A stretch of 64,000 nucleotides of DNA from Candidatus Caccalectryoclostridium excrementigallinarum. GTDB taxonomy: Bacteria > Bacillota > Clostridia > Christensenellales > UBA3700. Each line of letters begins with the position of its first letter. Within the stretch, counting starts at the first letter, position 1. The DNA lies in the NCBI GenBank assembly GCA_018714485.1, contig DVNJ01000032.1, positions 4,135-68,134 of the forward strand. Direction: 5' to 3'. Shown piece by piece: positions 21,795-44,781 of the stretch. The position numbers and the translations under genes were made by a program. The notes beneath the pieces are model-generated. The model saw nothing but the letters and a program-made list of their open reading frames with translations, ran no database searches and had not been told where the DNA came from.

Positions 21795-21871
21795 TGGCGC
21801 ACCCTAAGGAGCTCGAATCCCTAACCTTTGGTTCCGTAGACCAACGCTCTATCCAATTGAGCTAAGGGTGC
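21795..21871 (-). tRNA. tRNA-Arg (anticodon ACG)
   Basis: Manual cloverleaf: acceptor GCACCCT/AGGGTGC, anticodon loop CTACGGA, T-loop TTCGAGC, encoded CCA. Confidence 0.9.
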
Positions 21872-28716: not shown

Positions 28717-28793
28717 CGAGGTGTGGCGCAGTTTGGTAGCGCGCACGGTTAGGGACCGTGAGGCCGCAAGTTCAAGTCTTGTCACCTCGACCA
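28717..28793 (+). tRNA. tRNA-Pro with anticodon AGG (A34)
   Basis: Manual cloverleaf: acceptor CGAGGTG/CACCTCG, A73, CCA encoded, anticodon stem CACGG/CCGTG, loop TTAGGGA (anticodon 28751-28753), T-loop TTCAAGT. Extended -10 TGCTACAAT upstream, terminator downstream. Confidence 0.85.
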
Positions 28794-31486: not shown

Positions 31487-32593
31487 TCAAAGCCTTGACT
31501 TGAAGTCTTGGTAAGAAAAGCTGTTGAGAAGGGCGATCTCGCCGCTCGATTTTCGGTAGAGGATGTCGGGCAGCGGGGTGCCGTTGAAGGTGTTGGTCTT
31601 GACCATGGTGTAAAGCGCCATGTCGAGAAAGACTATCTCGTCCCCCGCTTTGAGCGGCTTATCGAAGGAATAATCGCCGATGACGTCGCCCGCAAGGCAG
31701 GTGTTGCCCGCGAGGCGGTAGGTATGCTTTTTCTCGCCGGGAAGTCCCGAGCCGAGCACGGGCGGGCGGTAAGGCATCTCCAAGACGTCGGGCATATGGC
31801 ATGCCGCCGAGGCGTCGAGAATGGCGATGTCGATGCCGTTTTGCACGACGTCGAGCACGGTGGCGCGCAGCTCGCCCGCGTTGAGCACGACCGCTTCGCC
31901 CGGCTCTAAATATACCGTGACGCCGTATTTGTCGATAAGGCGCGTTATCGTGCGCTCCAAGAGGGGGATGTCGTAGTCGGGGCGGGTGATATGGTGCCCG
32001 CCGCCGAGATTGAGCGAGTTGAGTGAGCTTAAATACTTGCCGAACTTTTCTTCGAGGGCTTGAACGGTCTTTGCCAAGGCGTCGCTGTTTTGCTCGCAGA
32101 GGGTATGCATATGCAGTCCGTCGAGCAGGGGAAGCAGGCTCTCGTCAAAGTCCTCCGCCTTTACGCCCATGCGCGAGCCGGGCGAGCAGGGATCGTAGAT
32201 GGCGTGCTCCTGCGTGGAGCATTCGGGATTCACCCTCAGCTGAACTTTAAGCCCCGCTCTCACGGCGCGCTCGCCGTATTTTCTCAGCTGCGCGTTTGAG
32301 TTGAAGACGATCTCGTCCGCGATCGAGAGGAGTGCTTCAAAGTCCTCCTCCTTGAAGGCGGGGGAAAAGACGTGCACTTCGCCGGGGAAATGCTCGCGCC
32401 CGAGCCGCGCTTCGTAAAGTCCGCTCGCGGTCGTGCCGTCGAGATAGCGCGAGATGAGCGGATAAGTCTTGAAGCAGGAAAACGCCTTTTGCGCCAAGAG
32501 TATTTTGCAACCCGTGCGGCGTTTGACGCCCGCGAGCGTTTGCAGATTTTTCAAAAGCGCCTTTTCGTCGATGACAAAGCAGGGCGTCTTCAT
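31487..32593 (-). CDS. nspC: carboxynorspermidine/carboxyspermidine decarboxylase
   Basis: MKTPCFVIDEKALLKNL start. Alanine-racemase-fold decarboxylase of about 368 aa. The ATG overlaps the upstream stop (TGATG). Confidence 0.9.
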   Translation of the reverse strand: MKTPCFVIDEKALLKNLQTLAGVKRRTGCKILLAQKAFSCFKTYPLISRYLDGTTASGLYEARLGREHFPGEVHVFSPAFKEEDFEALLSIADEIVFNSNAQLRKYGERAVRAGLKVQLRVNPECSTQEHAIYDPCSPGSRMGVKAEDFDESLLPLLDGLHMHTLCEQNSDALAKTVQALEEKFGKYLSSLNSLNLGGGHHITRPDYDIPLLERTITRLIDKYGVTVYLEPGEAVVLNAGELRATVLDVVQNGIDIAILDASAACHMPDVLEMPYRPPVLGSGLPGEKKHTYRLAGNTCLAGDVIGDYSFDKPLKAGDEIVFLDMALYTMVKTNTFNGTPLPDILYRKSSGEIALLNSFSYQDFKSRL

Positions 32594-33852
32594 CAGTCCA
32601 CCAAGACGGGGTTTTCGCATATCTGCCAGGGCAGGCCGTACTTGTTCAGCGCGTCCATATAGGGATCGGGATCGAACTCTTCCACGGTGTAGACGCCCGC
32701 CTTATCCCATTTGCCCGTGAGCAGCATGAGCGCGCCTATCATGGCGGGCACGCCCGTGGTGTAAGCCACTGCCTGCGAGCCGACTTCTTTGAAGCACTCT
32801 TCGTGGTCGCAGATGTTATAGATATAGGCGGTCTTTTTCTTGCCGTCCTTTTCGCCCGTGAAGATGCAACCGATGTTGGTCTTGCCCTTGGTGCGCGGTC
32901 CCAGCGAGGCGGGATCGGGCAAAAGCGCCTTCAAAAACTGTATGGGAACTATCTCGCGCCCTTCGAACATTATCGGCTCGGTGGAGAGCATGCCCACGTT
33001 TTCCAGGCACTTCATGTGCGTCAGATAGCTCTGCCCGAAGGTCATGAAAAAGCGGATGCGCTTGACGCCCTTAATGTTTTTGGCGAGGGATTCTATCTCT
33101 TCGTGGTGCAAAAGGTACATGTCCTTTTTGCCCACGCCGTCAAAGTCGTATTCGCGCTTTATGCTCATGGCGGGGACTTCCACCCACTTGCCGTTTTCCC
33201 AATAAGAGCCGGGCGCAGAGACCTCGCGCAGGTTTATCTCGGGATTGAAGTTGGTGGCGAAGGGATAGCCGTGGTCGCCGCCGTTGCAGTCCAAGATGTC
33301 TATCGTCTCTATCTTGTCGAAAAGATGCTTTTGCGCATAGGCGCAGTATGCCTGCGTCACGCCCGGATCGAAGCCCGAGCCCAAGAGGGCGGTCAGCCCC
33401 GCCTTTTTGAATTTTTCCGCATATTCCCATTGATAGGAATAATCGAAATAGGCGGAAAAGCCCTCTTTTTCGCAGCGCTTTTCGTATCTTTCGCGCCACT
33501 TCGGATCGCTCGTGTCCTCGGGTTCGTAGTTGGCGGTGTCCATATAGTTCACGCCGCATTCAAGGCATGCGTCCATGATGGTCAGATCCTGATAGGGCAG
33601 GGCGATATTCATCACCAGCTCGGGCTTATAGCTTTTGATCAGCGCGCAAAGCTCGCCCTTGTCGTCCGCGTTCACTTTCGCCGTGGTCAGCTTGGTCTTT
33701 GTCTTGCCTTCAAGCTGCCTTTTGAGTTCGTCGCACTTGGAAACCGTGCGGCTTGCGATGCACATCTCGGTGAAGACCTCATCGAGCATGCAGCATTTTT
33801 TGATCGCCACCTGAGCCACGCCGCCGCAGCCTATGACCAAAACCTTTGCCAT
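32593..33852 (-). CDS. carboxynorspermidine/carboxyspermidine synthase (saccharopine dehydrogenase family)
   Basis: VLVIGCGGVAQV Rossmann N-terminus, 419 aa. Paired with nspC. Confidence 0.9.
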   Translation of the reverse strand: MAKVLVIGCGGVAQVAIKKCCMLDEVFTEMCIASRTVSKCDELKRQLEGKTKTKLTTAKVNADDKGELCALIKSYKPELVMNIALPYQDLTIMDACLECGVNYMDTANYEPEDTSDPKWRERYEKRCEKEGFSAYFDYSYQWEYAEKFKKAGLTALLGSGFDPGVTQAYCAYAQKHLFDKIETIDILDCNGGDHGYPFATNFNPEINLREVSAPGSYWENGKWVEVPAMSIKREYDFDGVGKKDMYLLHHEEIESLAKNIKGVKRIRFFMTFGQSYLTHMKCLENVGMLSTEPIMFEGREIVPIQFLKALLPDPASLGPRTKGKTNIGCIFTGEKDGKKKTAYIYNICDHEECFKEVGSQAVAYTTGVPAMIGALMLLTGKWDKAGVYTVEEFDPDPYMDALNKYGLPWQICENPVLVD

Positions 33853-33853
33853 A

Positions 33854-34717
33854 TCAGACCTCCTTATTTTCGAGCGCTATGAGCATCTCGCGTATTATCT
33901 TTGCCGCCGCGGCGACGGAAATGCCGCTTTGGTCGTAATGAGGGGAGAGTTCGTTCACGTCGCAGCCGACTATCTCCGCCCTCTTGCAGACGAGAGTCGC
34001 CGCTCTTCTCAAAGCGTCGAAACTCACGCCGCCCGGCTCGGGAGTCCCCGTTCCGGGGAAGACGGAGGGATCGAGAACGTCGAGATCGAGCGTGAAATAA
34101 ACAGGTTCGCCCTTGAGCTTTTCAAGAGTTTCTTCCAAGCCCTCGAAGTCGAAAAGACGGGTATTTATCCTGCCCCTGCCCCATGAAAATTCGCTTTTGT
34201 CTCCCGAACGTATGCCGAATTGGAATATGCTGCCGCCCTGCAAAAGCTCGTGGCAGCGGCGCAGCACGCAGGCATGAGAGAGCTTTACGCCGAGGTAATC
34301 TTCCCTCAGGTCGGCATGCGCGTCAAAGTGGATGATATTCACGCGCGGAAATTTTTTCACGACCGCGCGGAAAGCGCCTAACGTGACGAGGTGCTCGCCG
34401 CCTATCATGAAGGGGAGCTTTTCGTCTTTGAGAATGAGCGCGGCGCGCTTTTCGATCGCTTTAAGGACTGCGGAAGCGTCGCCTATGGGCAGCTCGAGCT
34501 CTCCGCTGTCAAAGACGCGGCAGTCGGCGAGATCGGCGTTTTGATAGGGACTGAAAGTTTCCAGCCCGTAAGAGTCGCGCCTGATCGCGCCGCCGGCGAA
34601 GCGGGTCCCGGGGCGGAAAGAGGTCGTGCCGTCGAAGGGCGCGGAAAAGAGCGCTATCGAGGCGTCTTTGTATTTTGTGTCGCACGCCATAAAGACGTCA
34701 GTCTGCATGTTCAACAT
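33854..34717 (-). CDS. speB: agmatinase
   Basis: Ureohydrolase Mn-site motifs GGEH, HFDAHADL, LDLDVLDP. The start could be slightly downstream. Confidence 0.9.
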   Translation of the reverse strand: MLNMQTDVFMACDTKYKDASIALFSAPFDGTTSFRPGTRFAGGAIRRDSYGLETFSPYQNADLADCRVFDSGELELPIGDASAVLKAIEKRAALILKDEKLPFMIGGEHLVTLGAFRAVVKKFPRVNIIHFDAHADLREDYLGVKLSHACVLRRCHELLQGGSIFQFGIRSGDKSEFSWGRGRINTRLFDFEGLEETLEKLKGEPVYFTLDLDVLDPSVFPGTGTPEPGGVSFDALRRAATLVCKRAEIVGCDVNELSPHYDQSGISVAAAAKIIREMLIALENKEV

Positions 34718-35558
34718 TGCTCAGAAGTTCCTCCACATAGGCAGGGATATAAAACGCGCCCTTATGCAGGGTGGTGGTGTAATACCTGCATTTTATGCCG
34801 CGCGCGTTCCATTTTTTCTCGTTAAGATCGCGCAGCGGATGATATTTTTTCGAGGCAAAGCCGAAGAGCCAATGCCCGGAAGGATAGCTTGGGATATGCG
34901 CCTGATAGACCTTTGCCTTGGGGAAGGATTCCACGATGCGTTTATGCGCGCGCTGGCAGGCGACGGCGTCCTCGGCGTAAAAGGGGCTTTCGTGCTGATT
35001 GACCATGATCCCGTCCTCTTTGAGCGCCTTGAAGCAGTTTCCGTAAAACTCGCGCGTGAACAGCCCTTCGCCCGGTCCGAAAGGATCGGTGGAGTCCACG
35101 ATTATCAGGTCGTAAGCGTCCTTTTTCGAGCGCACGAATTTGAGTCCGTCCTCGAAATGCAGGCTCACGCGCGGATCGTCGAAGGCGCAGGCGGTGAAGG
35201 GCAGATACTCGCGGCATACCCTCGTCACCTCTTCGTCTATCTCGGCAAGGTCGATATGTTCGATGTCGTCATATTTGACCAGCTCGCGTATGACTCCGCC
35301 GTCGCCGCCGCCGATGACGAGCACGCTGCGGGCATGGGGGTGCACGGCGAGAGGGACGTGAGTTATCATCTCGTGATAGATGAACTCGTCCTTTTGAGTG
35401 AGCATCATGTAGCCGTCGAGGACGAGAAAGCGTCCGAATTCGGGAGAGTCGAAGACGTCGATGCGCTGGAACTCGCTTTTGCCCGAATAGACCTGCTTGT
35501 CCACTCTGATAGAGAGTTTAACGTTGGGGGTGTGCATTTCGGAAAACCAATATTCCAT
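34698..35558 (-). CDS. speE: spermidine synthase (polyamine aminopropyltransferase)
   Basis: VLVIGGGDGG and DSTDPFGPGEGLF motifs. Confidence 0.9.
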   Translation of the reverse strand: MEYWFSEMHTPNVKLSIRVDKQVYSGKSEFQRIDVFDSPEFGRFLVLDGYMMLTQKDEFIYHEMITHVPLAVHPHARSVLVIGGGDGGVIRELVKYDDIEHIDLAEIDEEVTRVCREYLPFTACAFDDPRVSLHFEDGLKFVRSKKDAYDLIIVDSTDPFGPGEGLFTREFYGNCFKALKEDGIMVNQHESPFYAEDAVACQRAHKRIVESFPKAKVYQAHIPSYPSGHWLFGFASKKYHPLRDLNEKKWNARGIKCRYYTTTLHKGAFYIPAYVEELLSNVEHAD

Positions 35559-35559
35559 A

Positions 35560-37014
35560 TCAAACTCCTTTGAGGACGTTGAGTCGCTCTATCCCCGCAT
35601 CCTCGGGACCCGTCATCGAGCAGCCCTTGCGCTTGGCGTAACGGATATAATCGAGAATTTGCGGGGTTATTTTTTCTCCCGGAGCCAGAACGGGTATGCC
35701 GGGGGGATAGCACATGACGAATTCGCTGCATATCCTGCCCGCCGTCTCTTCGATGGGCAGGGAGATCTTGTCTGCGTAAAAGGCGTCCTGCGGCGAGACT
35801 TCCACGACGGGTTCGATGTATTCCTGTTTCATCAGTCCCGCCCTGTCCCGCTTGAAGCGCCGCCTGATCTCGGCGAGCGCGCCGATGAGGCGCTCGATCT
35901 CGCGCGGACGGTCGCCGATGGAGATGTAGGCGAGGAGGTTGCCGAGGTCGCCGAACTCCGCCTGAATGTCGTATTCGTCGCGCAGAAGCGAATAGACCTC
36001 TATTCCCGCAAGCCCCACGTTGAGCGTGTTTATCGAGAGCTTTGTCTCGTCGAAGTCAAAGACGGTGTCGCCGTTGATAAGCTCTTTTCCGTAAGCGTAA
36101 TAATCGCCTATCTCGTTCACCTCTTTGCGCGCGTAACGCGCCAGCTCGCTCACCCGCGCGAAAGCCTGCTTTCCCCTGAGCGCGAGATTGCGGCGGGAGA
36201 TGTCAAGCGAGGAGAGCAAAAGATAAGACGCGCTCGTGGTCTGCGTGAGGTTGATTATCTGTCTGACATAGCCCTCGTGCATGGAAGGTCCCGTCAAAAG
36301 TATCGAGCTTTGAGTGAGGCTCCCGCCCGACTTATGCATGGAGACCGCCGCCATGTCCGCGCCCGCCGCCATGGCGGAGAGAGGCATGTCTTCGCCGAAA
36401 TAAAAATGCGTGCCGTGCGCTTCGTCGGCGATGCAGAGCATGCCGTGGCTGTGCGCCAGCTCGGCGATGGCTTTAAGGTCGGAACAGATGCCGTAATAGG
36501 TGGGGTTGTTGACGAGGACGGCTTTGGCGTCGGGATTTTGCTCGATGGCTTTTTTCACTCCCTCCACGCTCATGCCAAGGGAGATGCCCAGCTCGTCGTC
36601 GCAGCCGGGGTCGACGTAAACGGGCAGGGCGCCGTTGAGGACCATCGCGCCCATGACGCTGCGGTGAACGTTGCGCGGCAAAATTATCTTTTCGCCCTTT
36701 TTGGAGACGGAGAGGACCATGCTCTGAACGGCGGAGGTCGTCCCGCCCACCATCAAAAAGGCGTGCGCCGCGCCGAAGGCTTCCGCCGCCAGCTCTTCCG
36801 CGTCGCGTATGACCGAGACGGGGTGACAGAGGAAGTCGAGGCATTTCATGGAATTGACGTCCAAATTCATGCACCGCTCTCCCAAAAGGGCGGTGAGTTC
36901 GGGATTGCCGCGTCCGCGCTTGTGCCCGGGGACGTCGAAGGGCACGAGGCGCATGGATTGAAGTTGTTCGAGCGCTTCGTAGATGGGCGCTCTCTCTTGC
37001 GTGAGTTTTTTCAT
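35560..37014 (-). CDS. speA: Orn/Lys/Arg decarboxylase family enzyme, probable arginine decarboxylase
   Basis: Fold-I PLP decarboxylase with SMHKSGGSLTQSS PLP-lysine, about 484 aa as in the B. subtilis SpeA type. Operon context with speB. Confidence 0.8.
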   Translation of the reverse strand: MKKLTQERAPIYEALEQLQSMRLVPFDVPGHKRGRGNPELTALLGERCMNLDVNSMKCLDFLCHPVSVIRDAEELAAEAFGAAHAFLMVGGTTSAVQSMVLSVSKKGEKIILPRNVHRSVMGAMVLNGALPVYVDPGCDDELGISLGMSVEGVKKAIEQNPDAKAVLVNNPTYYGICSDLKAIAELAHSHGMLCIADEAHGTHFYFGEDMPLSAMAAGADMAAVSMHKSGGSLTQSSILLTGPSMHEGYVRQIINLTQTTSASYLLLSSLDISRRNLALRGKQAFARVSELARYARKEVNEIGDYYAYGKELINGDTVFDFDETKLSINTLNVGLAGIEVYSLLRDEYDIQAEFGDLGNLLAYISIGDRPREIERLIGALAEIRRRFKRDRAGLMKQEYIEPVVEVSPQDAFYADKISLPIEETAGRICSEFVMCYPPGIPVLAPGEKITPQILDYIRYAKRKGCSMTGPEDAGIERLNVLKGV

Positions 37015-37015
37015 C

Positions 37016-37774
37016 TCAATATACGTTCCTGCCGCTGAAGATCTCGATCATCTCGCGGCGCAGGTTATTCATTATCTCCAATCTCAGGCGGGGCGGCAGC
37101 TCATAGACGTCCGTCTTGAAGAGATAGTTTTGCAGGTTGATGTCCTTGACCATCATCTTGGTGTGGAAGATGTTCGCCCCGTAGACGTTGATGTCCACCG
37201 CGTCGTAACGCGAGAGGATATTGTCCGAGATATAATCCTGGATGCTGGTCACCTTGTGGTCCATGAACAGCTTTTTCCCGTCCACGTCGCGCGTGAAGCC
37301 CCTGACGCGGTAGTCCATGGTTATTATGTCCGAATCAAAAGAGCTGATGAGATAATCCAGCGTGGAAAGGGGAGTTATCTCGCCGCAGGTGGCGACGTCG
37401 ATGTCCACGCGGAAGGTGGCGAGCGAGGTCTCGGGATGATATTCCGGATAAGTGTGAACGGTGACGTGGCTCTTGTCTAAATGCGCCAGCTGCGTCTCGC
37501 CCGCGGGCTTCATCGAGCCTTCGGCGATGAGAATGGTCACGGACGCGCCCTGGGGATCGTAATCCTGCTTGGCGATGTTGAGCACTTTGGCGCCGATCAT
37601 GTCGGTGAGGTTGGTGAGGATATTGGTCAGGCGCTCGGAGTTATACTGTTCGTCGATATAATCGATATAATCGCGCTGCTCGCGCGCCGTCTTGGCGTAG
37701 CAAACGTCGTAGATGTTGAAACTCAACGCCTTGGTGAGATTGTTGAACCCGTATAACTTCATCTTGTCGTCCAT
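37016..37774 (-). CDS. speD: S-adenosylmethionine decarboxylase proenzyme (E. coli SpeD type)
   Basis: [16 protein letters not shown] self-processing site region, closely resembling E. coli SpeD. Confidence 0.9.
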
Positions 37775-38090
37775 GTCTTTCTCCGCTGCGCCTTAGCGCA
37801 TATAATGAAAAAGCGATATGCTCTGCATACCGCCTGTTGTATCGTGATCGCGCACGGGCGCATTTTCCCACGGATACGAAGTCAGAGTCTATATAGCAAA
37901 TACTTACTTTTACTACTCTTATTGTTACAAGCGGCGGCACCGAAGTACCGACTCATAATATAAGGATCGGGAAGTCCCGATACAATAAGGCAGCTTGCGC
38001 TGCTCATCGGCAGTGGACCCGGCTGTCCGTATGGCCTTGACCCGAAGGTGGTCCGTAGTTATTTGCGTGGATACTCTTTTCATATCCGGG
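37775..38090 (-). promoter_or_regulatory. long structured 5' leader of the polyamine operon (unclassified candidate riboswitch/attenuator)
   Basis: About 315 nt between the promoter and the speD ATG. Two c(UUCG)g hairpins, a c(GCAA)g hairpin, ATCGGG-ACTT-CCCGAT, an 8-bp closing helix CUUAUUGU/ACAAUAAG (37916-37987), and an internal terminator. Confidence 0.5.
37804..37832 (-). terminator. intrinsic terminator inside the speD leader (attenuator)
   Basis: Minus strand reads GCGGUAUGC-AGA-GCAUAUCGC (9 bp) followed by UUUUU, about 30 nt upstream of the SD/ATG of speD. Confidence 0.6.
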
Positions 38091-38095
38091 CGCCT

Positions 38096-38124
38096 TTATT
38101 TTAGAACATAAAAAGACAAATGTC
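38096..38124 (-). promoter_or_regulatory. sigma-A promoter of the polyamine operon (TTGACA-17-TAAAAT)
   Basis: Minus strand reads TTGACAtttgtctttttatgttcTAAAAT. Confidence 0.6.
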
Positions 38125-38236
38125 AATAAGTTGCGCCATATTCCCCCGCGGAAATTAAACTTTTATTTTACGCGCCCCCGCTTGCCTTTTGCCGCCGCCG
38201 CGTATTAAAATATAAAAAACGTTTTGCGAGGAAAGC

Positions 38237-39262
38237 ATGTCCGCATTAAAAGAGCAGTTCAAACAGATAAAACCGAGCAATTTTTTCTTTCTCACCTTAG
38301 CGGGTATAATAAACGCCGTGGGTGTGACGCTGTTTTTGGCGCCCGAGGCGGTCAACCTCTATGACAGCGGCTTTTCGGGCACGTCCATCCTGCTCGGCTC
38401 GCTGACGGATAACGTCGGGCTGAATATGAGCGTCTGGCTGGTCATCCTCAACGTCCCCTTCTTCCTCTTCGGACTCAAAAAGATGGGGCTGCCCTTTATC
38501 ACTTATTCGCTCTATACGATAGGCGTTTATTCCCTCTTTTCCTATCTTTTTCAGACGGGATTCGGCATAGTTTTCCCCGACGGCGGCTCGCCGATCGCGG
38601 GGAAGGACAAGCTGCTTTGCGCCATCTTCGGCGGACTCATCTCGGGCATCGGCAGCGGCACGACCATTCGCTTCGGCGGCGCCATCGACGGCGTCGAGGT
38701 CATGGCGGTCATGTTCTCCAAGCGCATGGGCATGACCGTGGGCACCTTTGTGATGAGCTATAACGTACTGTTTTATATCGTCGCCGGCGTGGTTTCCAAG
38801 AGCTGGGAAGCGCCCCTTTATTCGGTGATAGCCTATGCCGTGGGACTTAAAGCGGTGGACTTCATGGTCGACGGTTTCGACAAGGCGAAGACGGCGTTCA
38901 TCATCACGGATAAATACGACGAGATGGCGTCGCTTTTGAGCGAGGAGTTCGGCAGAGGCGTGACCAAGATGGACGCGGAGGGATATTATTCCAAGACGCC
39001 CAAGACCGTGCTTTACTGCGTGGTCAACAGGTTCGAGGTGAACAAGCTCAAGCAGATAGTCACCTCCGTAGATCCCGCCGCCTTTATGGTGATAAACGAC
39101 GTGACCGACAGCTTAGGCAGTTCGCTCAAATTCGGCAGGCGCAAAGCCGTGAGCGAGCGCAGGGCGCGCAGGAGCGAGAAGATGGAAGAATTGAAGGGCG
39201 AGCTGAAAGAGCGCGTCTTGGAGAAAAAGGACGAAGAGGGCGGCGGCAACGAGGACGAATGA
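38237..39262 (+). CDS. YitT family membrane protein (DUF2179 C-terminal domain)
   Basis: Five TM helices plus a DUF2179-like C-terminal domain. K/E-rich tail. Confidence 0.85.
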   Translation: MSALKEQFKQIKPSNFFFLTLAGIINAVGVTLFLAPEAVNLYDSGFSGTSILLGSLTDNVGLNMSVWLVILNVPFFLFGLKKMGLPFITYSLYTIGVYSLFSYLFQTGFGIVFPDGGSPIAGKDKLLCAIFGGLISGIGSGTTIRFGGAIDGVEVMAVMFSKRMGMTVGTFVMSYNVLFYIVAGVVSKSWEAPLYSVIAYAVGLKAVDFMVDGFDKAKTAFIITDKYDEMASLLSEEFGRGVTKMDAEGYYSKTPKTVLYCVVNRFEVNKLKQIVTSVDPAAFMVINDVTDSLGSSLKFGRRKAVSERRARRSEKMEELKGELKERVLEKKDEEGGGNEDE

Positions 39263-44523: not shown

Positions 44524-44572
44524 CGTGAGCGCGAAAAAACGCGCCTCCGCCTCCCTCCGAAGCTTGGCTTTC

Positions 44573-44745
44573 GAGCACAGGCAGGTCTCCTGACTTACGG
44601 TCTCATGCCTTGCGTCCGCCTTCCCCCGCAGGGTGGCTGAGGGCGCTCGTAACCGTTACAGTAGCGGGGGCTGTCCGCGATTCTCACGCGGTTCCCGTTT
44701 TGATGCTTTTTCCCGCGCGCGGCGGAAAACACGCAACCTTGTGCC
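44573..44745 (-). promoter_or_regulatory. cobalamin riboswitch
   Basis: Minus strand contains GGGAACCGCGUGAGAAUCGCGGACAGCCCCCGCUACUGUAA and the B12 box AGUCAGGAGACCUGCC. P1 is GCACAAGG/CCUGUGC. Confidence 0.85.
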
Positions 44746-44751
44746 GAGGAA

Positions 44752-44781
44752 ATTATATTATAGGGAAAAATGCCCTGTCAA
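44752..44781 (-). promoter_or_regulatory. sigma-A promoter (TTGACA-18-TATAAT) of the riboswitch transcript
   Basis: Minus strand reads TTGACAgggcatttttccctataaTATAAT. Confidence 0.5.

Follow-up and report, generated by a model that had tools for sequence, protein, structure and literature searches.

The 64,000-nucleotide (nt) stretch analysed here, taken from contig DVNJ01000032.1 of Candidatus Caccalectryoclostridium excrementigallinarum and hereafter called the window, carries a polyamine operon that is preceded by a long, structured leader RNA. That leader is a new member of a known orphan family, the ldcC family: its model score, its invariant nucleotides and its gene context all fit. Positions are those of the window, and the operon, the leader and the features within them lie on the minus strand.

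A polyamine operon and its leader

The regulated operon (31487..37774), annotated with Pfam and NCBIfam, opens with speD (37016-37774), a 252-residue open reading frame (ORF) that starts 233 nt downstream of the family match described below. It continues with a gene for a pyridoxal phosphate (PLP)-dependent Orn/Lys/Arg decarboxylase (35560-37014), speE (34698-35558), an agmatinase gene (33854-34717), a carboxy(nor)spermidine dehydrogenase-like gene (32593-33852) and nspC (31487-32620). The NCBIfam entries matched above their cut-offs in the operon are TIGR03331, NF002010/TIGR00417, TIGR01230 and TIGR01047. The dehydrogenase scores below the cut-off of NF043000, at 406 vs 800 bits, so its exact substrate is uncertain. 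Both routes to spermidine are present in the one operon, the first through speD and speE, the second through the carboxy(nor)spermidine dehydrogenase-like gene and nspC.

A preliminary description of this DNA, made from the sequence alone, had noted in the leader a promoter, several hairpins, a 72-nt three-way junction, a terminator and a Shine–Dalgarno (SD) sequence. On reading 37500-38500, all of these are found on the minus strand, while the positions given for them prove to be some 2-3 nt too low throughout. The sigma-70-type promoter TTGACA-17-TAAAAT, matching 11 of 12 consensus positions, thus occupies 38098..38126 (-35 at 38121-38126, -10 at 38098-38103) and not 38096-38124; the junction occupies 37918-37989 and not 37916-37987; and the terminator, which had been placed at 37804-37832, has an 11-pair stem at 37835..37811 and a U tract reaching 37807. 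From the position of the promoter, transcription would start near 38091, giving a leader of around 317 nt up to the speD ATG at 37774. Close to the gene, a small hairpin, GCGCUAAGGCGC (37788-37799), lies upstream of the SD sequence GGAG (37781-37784). The divergent YitT gene (ATG at 38237) has, as had been proposed, a promoter-like site of its own at 38182-38211 on the plus strand.

The minimum free energy (MFE) of the 326-nt leader is -114.8 kcal/mol, compared with -95.2 +/- 4.5 kcal/mol for 100 dinucleotide shuffles, none of which folds as well (z = -4.4, 0/100). Chance does not account for the structure, since 100 other loci have this architecture too, with compensatory changes.

Membership of the ldcC family

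The whole window was scanned with Rfam 15 at gathering thresholds, and the region 37700-38300 was additionally scanned permissively at E <= 10. This places RF02440 (Streptococcus sRNA SpF59 / ldcC RNA) at 38007-38054 on the minus strand, with 63.0 bits against a gathering threshold of 37.2, an E-value of 5e-11 and coverage of model positions 1-54 of 54. Every upper-case position of the RF02440 consensus is identical in the window, the stems pair (GGACC/GGUCC; ACC-UUCG-GGU) and the nucleotides of the ldcC internal loop and tail (AAGGCCAUACGGACAGCC ... UGCCGA) are present. The preliminary description had regarded the element as unclassified, a view that by its own terms was to be given up on a significant Rfam hit, and RF02440 is such a hit; the leader should therefore be annotated as an ldcC-family leader. 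Its failure to recognise in the leader any S-adenosylmethionine (SAM), lysine, M-box, T-box, ykkC, cyclic di-AMP or purine riboswitch is borne out, since none of these models matches 37700-38300 at E <= 10. Under permissive filters in the same region no match to SAM-I or any other member of the SAM clan was seen. Besides RF02440 the only match there is one to BjrC68, at chance level (13.8 bits, E = 0.88), and other Rfam classes were discarded.

The ldcC motif was described in 2017 by Weinberg et al. as a bulged hairpin with many invariant nucleotides and a possible pseudoknot, and as a probable cis-regulator of polyamine genes (PMC5737381). In the searchable literature after that description we found no ligand assigned to the family. 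The earlier suggestion of a candidate riboswitch or attenuator therefore named the right functional category, the ldcC family being itself an orphan.

Gene context in the family points the same way. Scanning one genome per species for a 21-nt invariant core yielded at least 120 loci, the hosts among those listed being Clostridia, Bacilli including Lactococcus, a Negativicute and a metagenome-assembled genome (MAG) of one spirochaete. As every locus was collected through an identical 21-nt core, diverged members of the family will be missing from this set. Among the listed loci with enough sequence, a co-oriented polyamine gene lies downstream in 109 of 109, the first gene encoding a PLP decarboxylase in 36, SpeD in 32, carboxyspermidine dehydrogenase in 22 and PotA in 19. 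Wherever the flank is long enough, the distance from the core to the start of the first polyamine gene downstream is 221-655 nt. All four lead-gene functions raise cellular spermidine, through either synthesis route or through uptake. A structured, cis-acting leader of the polyamine operon, as had been proposed for this element, is thus what the related loci also have, and we consider it very likely that the window element is a cis-acting attenuator of the ldcC family.

Elsewhere in the window, on the minus strand at 44563-44757, lies a cobalamin riboswitch aptamer (RF00174, 94.4 bits, full model) that is unrelated to the ldcC leader. The scan at gathering thresholds also finds two tRNA genes, at 28717-28790 on the plus strand and 21798-21871 on the minus strand.

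An extended conserved domain

An alignment of 42 leaders is conserved well outside the 54 nt of the Rfam model, both 5' and 3' of the hairpin. In order, the family has a 5' AGAGUC...GCAAUUA strand, the ldcC hairpin with its tail, a variable hairpin, UUAUUGAUUGAGUUAAAAGCUCAAAUUUUAUAAGUUGGUUACUUUAUAACC, a second variable hairpin and ACUUGUGAAACGGUCAAUAAGAGUAGUAAAAGUA...UAAUUGCUAUAUAGACUCU. There are clear long-range complements, namely AGAGUC/GACUCU (helix P1), GCAAUUA/UGAUUGC (P2) and UUAUUGA/UCAAUAA (P5). A covariance model, R1, was built on 28 leaders, using a structure drawn by hand that has 62 pairs over 243 positions. It finds exactly one full-length match, scoring 59-261 bits, in each of 100 sources. 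A three-pair extension of P1 in the model was dropped, as 37-54% of its cells are unpaired.

In the resulting alignment of 100 sequences, which was fitted to our own structure and of which 28 rows are the seed, 92.1% of cells form standard pairs, compared with 84.6 +/- 0.2% after shuffling (0/500 reach the observed value) and 33-44% with slid partners. The homologous leaders do show conserved helices with double changes, both sides having changed in 45 of the 62 pairs. The ldcC stems, P4 and P5d covary strongly, P2 and P5a moderately; P1, P5 and P5b are almost invariant yet 98-99% paired. Outside P1 the outermost helix, P0, was assessed in a register-free way: duplexes between the 5' and 3' flanks of the same locus have a mean of -9.23 kcal/mol, compared with -6.81 +/- 0.26 when flanks are permuted (0/2000), the window's own value being -21.4 kcal/mol. 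Since flanks pair better with their own partners than with permuted ones, P0 is a real helix of variable sequence. When all alignment columns were compared with one another for signs of tertiary or pseudoknot covariation, nothing beyond the known helices and noise emerged. Kissing of the P5a and P5c loops (AAAG/CUUU), judged by eye, was rejected, variants such as L023 and L090 having changed one loop without the other.

In the window, R1 has a single match, at 37872-38089 on the minus strand, which covers model positions 1-243 with 130.6 bits (E = 1.5e-32) and represents a complete extended domain. With P0 included the domain is about 220 nt long (223 nt), from the 5' end of the transcript to 37868. 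The 5' strand of P0, CCCGGAUAUGAA (38079..38090), forms the transcript 5' end and pairs in the MFE fold with UUCGUAUCCGUGG (37868-37880), a strand that the flank-duplex test also indicates. Inside it, AGAGU (38073..38077) and ACUCU (37884-37888) form P1, which is helix 1 of the family alignment and nearly invariant there, its core pairs being 82-93% paired. P2, helix 2, joins GCAAAUA (38060..38066) to UAUUUGC (37896-37902) in the MFE fold; it is 88.7% paired in the family, with a terminal pair that reads AU in 30 cases, UA in 19, GU in 12, UG in 7 and GC in 4. When the window leader is folded to its MFE without constraints, P0, P1, P2, P5 and the terminator all appear.

These outer helices enclose the ldcC hairpin, P3 (38007..38054), the only part covered by RF02440. 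It has an outer stem GGACC/GGUCC, an inner stem with a UUCG loop, an invariant bulge AAGGCCAUACGGACAGCC (38021-38038) and a 3' tail ACUGCCGA (38007-38014). Its outer base pair varies across the family between GC (40), UA (39) and CG (10), within helices 3-4. The loop, lying within 38015-38054, is one of the two c(UUCG)g hairpins noticed in the preliminary description. P4, helix 5, is the hairpin GCAGC-GCAA-GCUGC at 37990..38003, also seen previously; in the family its sequence is variable and its pairing kept (94% paired, with 29-39 double changes for each inner pair).

The 72-nt three-way junction (37918..37989) is the P5 module, made up of helices 6-9, which are 91-99% paired in the family. 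Its closing helix, CUUAUUGU/ACAAUAAG (37982-37989 / 37918-37925), had been picked out in the window on its own and corresponds to the family-conserved P5, in which UUAUUGU (37982-37988) pairs with ACAAUAA (37919-37925). Elsewhere P5 reads UUAUUGA/UCAAUAA; an A-U pair has thus become U-A, a compensatory change seen in the window and its nearest relatives. Within the module lie P5a, the previously reported AUCGGG-ACUU-CCCGAU hairpin (37966-37981), whose sequence differs from that of the family; P5b, formed by UUAUGAGU (37951-37958) and GCUUGUA (37926-37932); and an inner hairpin, CGGUAC-UUCG-GUGCCG (37935-37950), the second of the c(UUCG)g hairpins. Downstream, the segment GAGUAGUAAAAGUAAG (37903-37918) is nearly invariant, its columns being either invariant or at least 90% conserved, and after the 3' strand of P2 a joiner, UAUAUAG (37889-37895), leads on to P1.

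Compared with the family, the window copy is a naturally minimised form, to judge from its sequence: the usual P5c and P5d are merged into the one UUCG hairpin, and there is no GAAACGG joiner. L121 and L122, two relatives from metagenomes, are intermediate in form, and a further metagenome contig (L123) carries a leader identical to that of the window. The nearest SpeD proteins are those of Flavonifractor sp. An100 (90%) and Gemmiger sp. An50 (88%), which are Oscillospiraceae-type Clostridia. Changes in the other direction are also seen, three loci (L046, L071, L062) whose domains are otherwise typical carrying 40-100 nt of inserted sequence in the region of P5a or P5c. The P5a and P5c hairpins therefore tolerate expansion, as they tolerate reduction in the window.

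Some departures from the common architecture were observed. In Acidaminococcus (L012) and Lactococcus cremoris (L119) only model positions 38 to ~205-211 are matched, without P0-P2. Within the window, a local hairpin can form at 37893-37916 on the minus strand between the nearly invariant GUAGUAA (37910-37916) and UUGCUAU (37893-37899), overlapping the 3' strand of P2. RNAalifold, run on a plain MAFFT alignment, chose this hairpin and missed P2. It may be an alternative conformer, and it lies beyond the reach of covariation because both of its strands are nearly invariant.

Terminator and candidate antiterminator

The intrinsic terminator inside the leader, another element of the preliminary description, occupies 37807..37837, with a 5' arm AGGCGGUAUGC (37825-37835), the loop AGA and a 3' arm GCAUAUCGCUU (37811-37821). 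Its stability is -13.4 kcal/mol in one computation and -14.0 kcal/mol in another. It is not peculiar to the window, as a terminator of -12 kcal/mol or stronger lies between the domain and the gene at 103 of the 109 listed loci. Three loci, including that of the spirochaete MAG (L087, L114 and L095, the last being the spirochaete), have no detectable terminator and have the gene start ~220-240 nt after the core, which suggests translational control there. The P5a hairpin of the window (37966-37981, minus strand), for which relatives have the equivalent UUGAGUUAAAAGCUCAAAUUUU, is followed by a U-rich run and looks like a terminator to simple scans. It lies inside the conserved domain and is probably not a functional terminator.

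The 5' arms of these terminators share a motif. The pentamer RCARG is present in 79 of 105 leader terminator 5' arms, compared with 7.6 +/- 2.6 in shuffled arms, and in only 34 of 311 (11%) of the other terminators of the same loci. It is complementary to CUUGU within the invariant ACUUGU strand of the inner helix P5b. Across the loci a 7-nt core pairs in 71-98% of cases in a fixed register. When the best upstream partner of the 5' arm is sought, it proves to be the 3' strand of P5b/P5d (...CAGACUUGUGAAA) in 70 of 104 loci, where around 12% would be expected by chance. Duplexes between cognate arms and targets have a mean of -13.4 kcal/mol, compared with -11.68 +/- 0.23 for permuted ones (0/2000).

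The window conforms to this pattern. Its terminator 5' arm starts with ACAGG (within 37830-37837), which is the RCARG element of the family. At the base of the arm, ACAGGCGG (37830-37837) is complementary to CCGCUUGU (37927..37934), a stretch that overlaps the 3' strand of P5b and is the proposed antiterminator target. The calculated energies are -4.2 kcal/mol for P5b, -15.4 kcal/mol for the ACAGGCGG/CCGCUUGU duplex and -14.0 kcal/mol for the terminator. In the closest relatives, L121 and L122, the pairing is kept with other letters, ACGGGCGG standing against CCGCUUGU. The complementarity may act as an antiterminator.

Proposed mechanism and alternatives

The following model can be proposed. 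Three stacked outer helices, P0, P1 and P2, would enclose the ldcC hairpin, P4 and the multi-helix P5 junction in a single closed domain. The terminator stands ~30 nt downstream of it. Its 5' arm has at its base ACAGGCGG, a mimic of the P5b 5' strand; the stem base is in effect a stronger version of this weak, AU/GU-rich inner helix, which would permit strand exchange. With the native fold of the domain locked, the P5b 3' strand would be unavailable and the terminator would form, so that transcription would end near 37807, an RNA of ~285 nt would be released and the operon would be OFF. With the domain unlocked, the emerging 5' arm could capture the P5b strand CCGCUUGU as a long-range antiterminator, and RNA polymerase would then read into speD and the rest of the operon (ON).

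The locking agent would most likely be the end product of the pathway, spermidine, or a close polyamine. This is the most economical effector because the regulated functions raise spermidine and because the one validated spermidine riboswitch (see below) shares the OFF logic. A small-molecule effector, in particular a polyamine, would accord with the gene context. We put the probability of the complete mechanism, a strand-exchange OFF switch driven by a polyamine, at about one half. The more specific and broader proposal, that this ~220-250-nt RNA is a widespread spermidine riboswitch of Bacillota which governs both synthesis routes and potABCD uptake by means of a helix-mimicking terminator, is advanced more tentatively, at a little under even odds.

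Several observations weigh against the strand-exchange switch. When transcripts truncated behind the 5' arm are given nested MFE folds, the antiterminator is seen in only 6 of 104 loci. Pairing of arm and target crosses the closed P0/P1/P2/P5 helices, which means that the domain must open or a pseudoknot must form; in the pseudoknot case the pairing's absence from nested folds is to be expected, but such folds then lend it no thermodynamic support. Outside the 6-7-nt core the register of the pairing varies, and ungapped covariation is weak (0.419 vs 0.383 +/- 0.02). Base-by-base covariation cannot prove the pairing in any case because the core ACUUGU is invariant. Furthermore, the two arms of a terminator are mutually complementary, so that the motif could equally reflect pairing of the 3' arm with the 5' strand of P5b. 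The direction of the response, OFF with effector, is argued from gene logic and by analogy, and neither ligand-binding nor termination data for any member of the family were found in the searchable literature. Finally, sequence conservation as high as this would be compatible as well with a partner that is a protein or another macromolecule.

That last point leads to one alternative, in which the RNA and the terminator are the same and the effector is a protein or other macromolecule, such as a polyamine-responsive RNA-binding protein acting on the invariant loops. Such a partner would lock the domain or release it, much as happens in ribosomal-protein leaders or PyrR/TRAP-type attenuation. 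Around 100 nt of junctions and loops are indeed unusually conserved across Bacilli, Clostridia, Negativicutes and one spirochaete, and no report of a ligand was found from the years since 2017. However, the regulated operons contain no conserved, co-located regulator gene, and very distant lineages with four different lead genes are better suited to a universal metabolite than to a lineage-specific protein. The window variant, moreover, keeps the rest of the domain although its conserved loops in P5a and P5c have been lost together with the GAAACGG joiner, which argues that those conserved surfaces are dispensable. We consider a macromolecular effector unlikely.

The RNA could also be a riboswitch for another ligand or ion, candidates being putrescine, agmatine, decarboxylated SAM (dcSAM), methylthioadenosine (MTA), SAM or an M-box-like response to polycation or Mg2+ load, or it could work with the opposite logic, the effector promoting the long-range pairing and read-through. 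Its large, many-helix domain does resemble cation-compaction sensors, and the fact that nested MFE folds already favour domain plus terminator without any effector could mean that the effector turns expression ON. Yet dcSAM, MTA and SAM are not involved in the carboxyspermidine route, which leads 22 loci, or in the function of potA, which leads 19. Putrescine is the product of some regulated genes and the substrate of others, so that a single logic fits it poorly, and spermidine is the shared end product. No Rfam match at E <= 10 links the leader to M-box, SAM or any other class. Such a different ligand or inverted logic seems to us to have only a small chance of being right.

A third possibility is that the element is mainly a trans-acting small RNA (sRNA), SpF59/srn235, ending at its own terminator, with its position before polyamine genes being secondary. 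The family was first catalogued as an sRNA in Streptococcus pneumoniae, where the member F59/srn235/Spd_sr49 lies between SP0915 and SP0916, co-oriented with and directly upstream of SP0916, a gene of the polyamine operon, and is recorded as a discrete RNA whose merged coordinates span 327 nt (TIGR4 869478-869804). It has a lung-fitness phenotype in transposon sequencing (Tn-seq), and a 2025 survey still lists and analyses it as a putative trans-acting sRNA (PMC4387999, PMC12323649). Accumulation of a discrete RNA fits premature termination too, and terminated riboswitch leaders have often been recorded first as sRNAs. Against a mainly trans-acting function stand the same-strand polyamine gene immediately downstream in 109 of 109 listed loci, the absence from the window of any separate promoter found between terminator and gene, and the complementarity of the terminator-arm motif to the domain, as one would expect of a read-through switch but not of a plain sRNA terminator. 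We judge it distinctly improbable as the main function, although a secondary trans role may exist alongside the one in cis.

Ribosome-mediated attenuation through a leader peptide, as in the upstream ORF of eukaryotic SAM decarboxylase (AdoMetDC) or in speFL of Enterobacteria, can be invoked from a 52-codon ORF on the leader strand (37925-38083, AUG at 38083) but is scarcely credible, since its ATG is not conserved (L050, L122 and L007 have no start codon there), no convincing SD sequence precedes it and substitutions keep base pairs, not codons; the ORF is probably not a gene.

Polyamines are obvious candidates for sensing by RNA, and the only class validated so far, with its 13 representatives, is rare. 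At least 120 loci carry the ldcC family, which is far more widespread: it occurs in Clostridia, Bacilli, Negativicutes and a spirochaete and stands before every major route to spermidine; as a polyamine sensor it would be the long-expected widespread polyamine riboswitch. New here are the probable real extent of the RNA (~220-250 nt in place of 54), a secondary structure supported by covariation and a terminator-switch hypothesis open to mutation, which together make the question of the ligand directly testable. If hairpin-sized constructs were used in earlier ligand screens, this could explain the orphan status of the family. The naturally minimised window copy, at 223 nt and without the P5c/P5d split and the GAAACGG joiner, would if genuine be convenient for biochemistry and structure determination.

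Comparison with known systems

The M-box, a sensor of Mg2+, offers a mechanistic analogy: in this large multi-helix aptamer, cation-dependent compaction hides the antiterminator strand that would otherwise be available to the 5' arm of the terminator. The leader differs from it in having no sequence or structure match and in a gene context of polyamine metabolism, not Mg2+ transport. T-box leaders are similar in length, share the host phylum and are likewise controlled through a terminator and an antiterminator, but no Rfam match to them is found at E <= 10, the T-box sequence is missing and the genes downstream are not related to aminoacyl-tRNA.

The nearest relative is the ldcC motif itself (RF02440, PMC5737381; F59 of Mann et al. 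2012, PMC3395615). The window shares with it the full model, the bulge AAGGCCAUACGGACAGCC and the tail UGCCGA, along with a location in the 5' untranslated region of decarboxylase, SAM decarboxylase or potA genes and with hosts among the Firmicutes plus a spirochaete. The difference is one of extent. The published and Rfam models comprise a 54-nt bulged hairpin only, whereas here that hairpin is one arm of a ~220-250-nt domain, closed by long-range helices and followed by a terminator with the matching motif; such extended copies were found in 100 of 100 relatives searched. The extent of the RNA (~220-250 nt vs 54), the long-range helices and the P5b-mimicking terminator motif all appear to be undescribed in the searchable literature.

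The preliminary description had stated that no polyamine-responsive riboswitch class is established. This is out of date, as a spermidine riboswitch was validated in 2023 by Salvail et al. as a rare variant of SAM-I with 13 representatives, working as a terminator-based OFF switch before ldcC, speE and speB (PMC10853860). It resembles the leader described here in gene context, in host phylum and in the proposed logic, by which the end product would turn the operon OFF through an intrinsic terminator. Its four-helix SAM-I fold is unrelated, and the window leader has no SAM-clan Rfam match at E <= 10. The two also differ in abundance, those 13 representatives comparing with at least 120 loci, counted at one genome per species, for the ldcC family.

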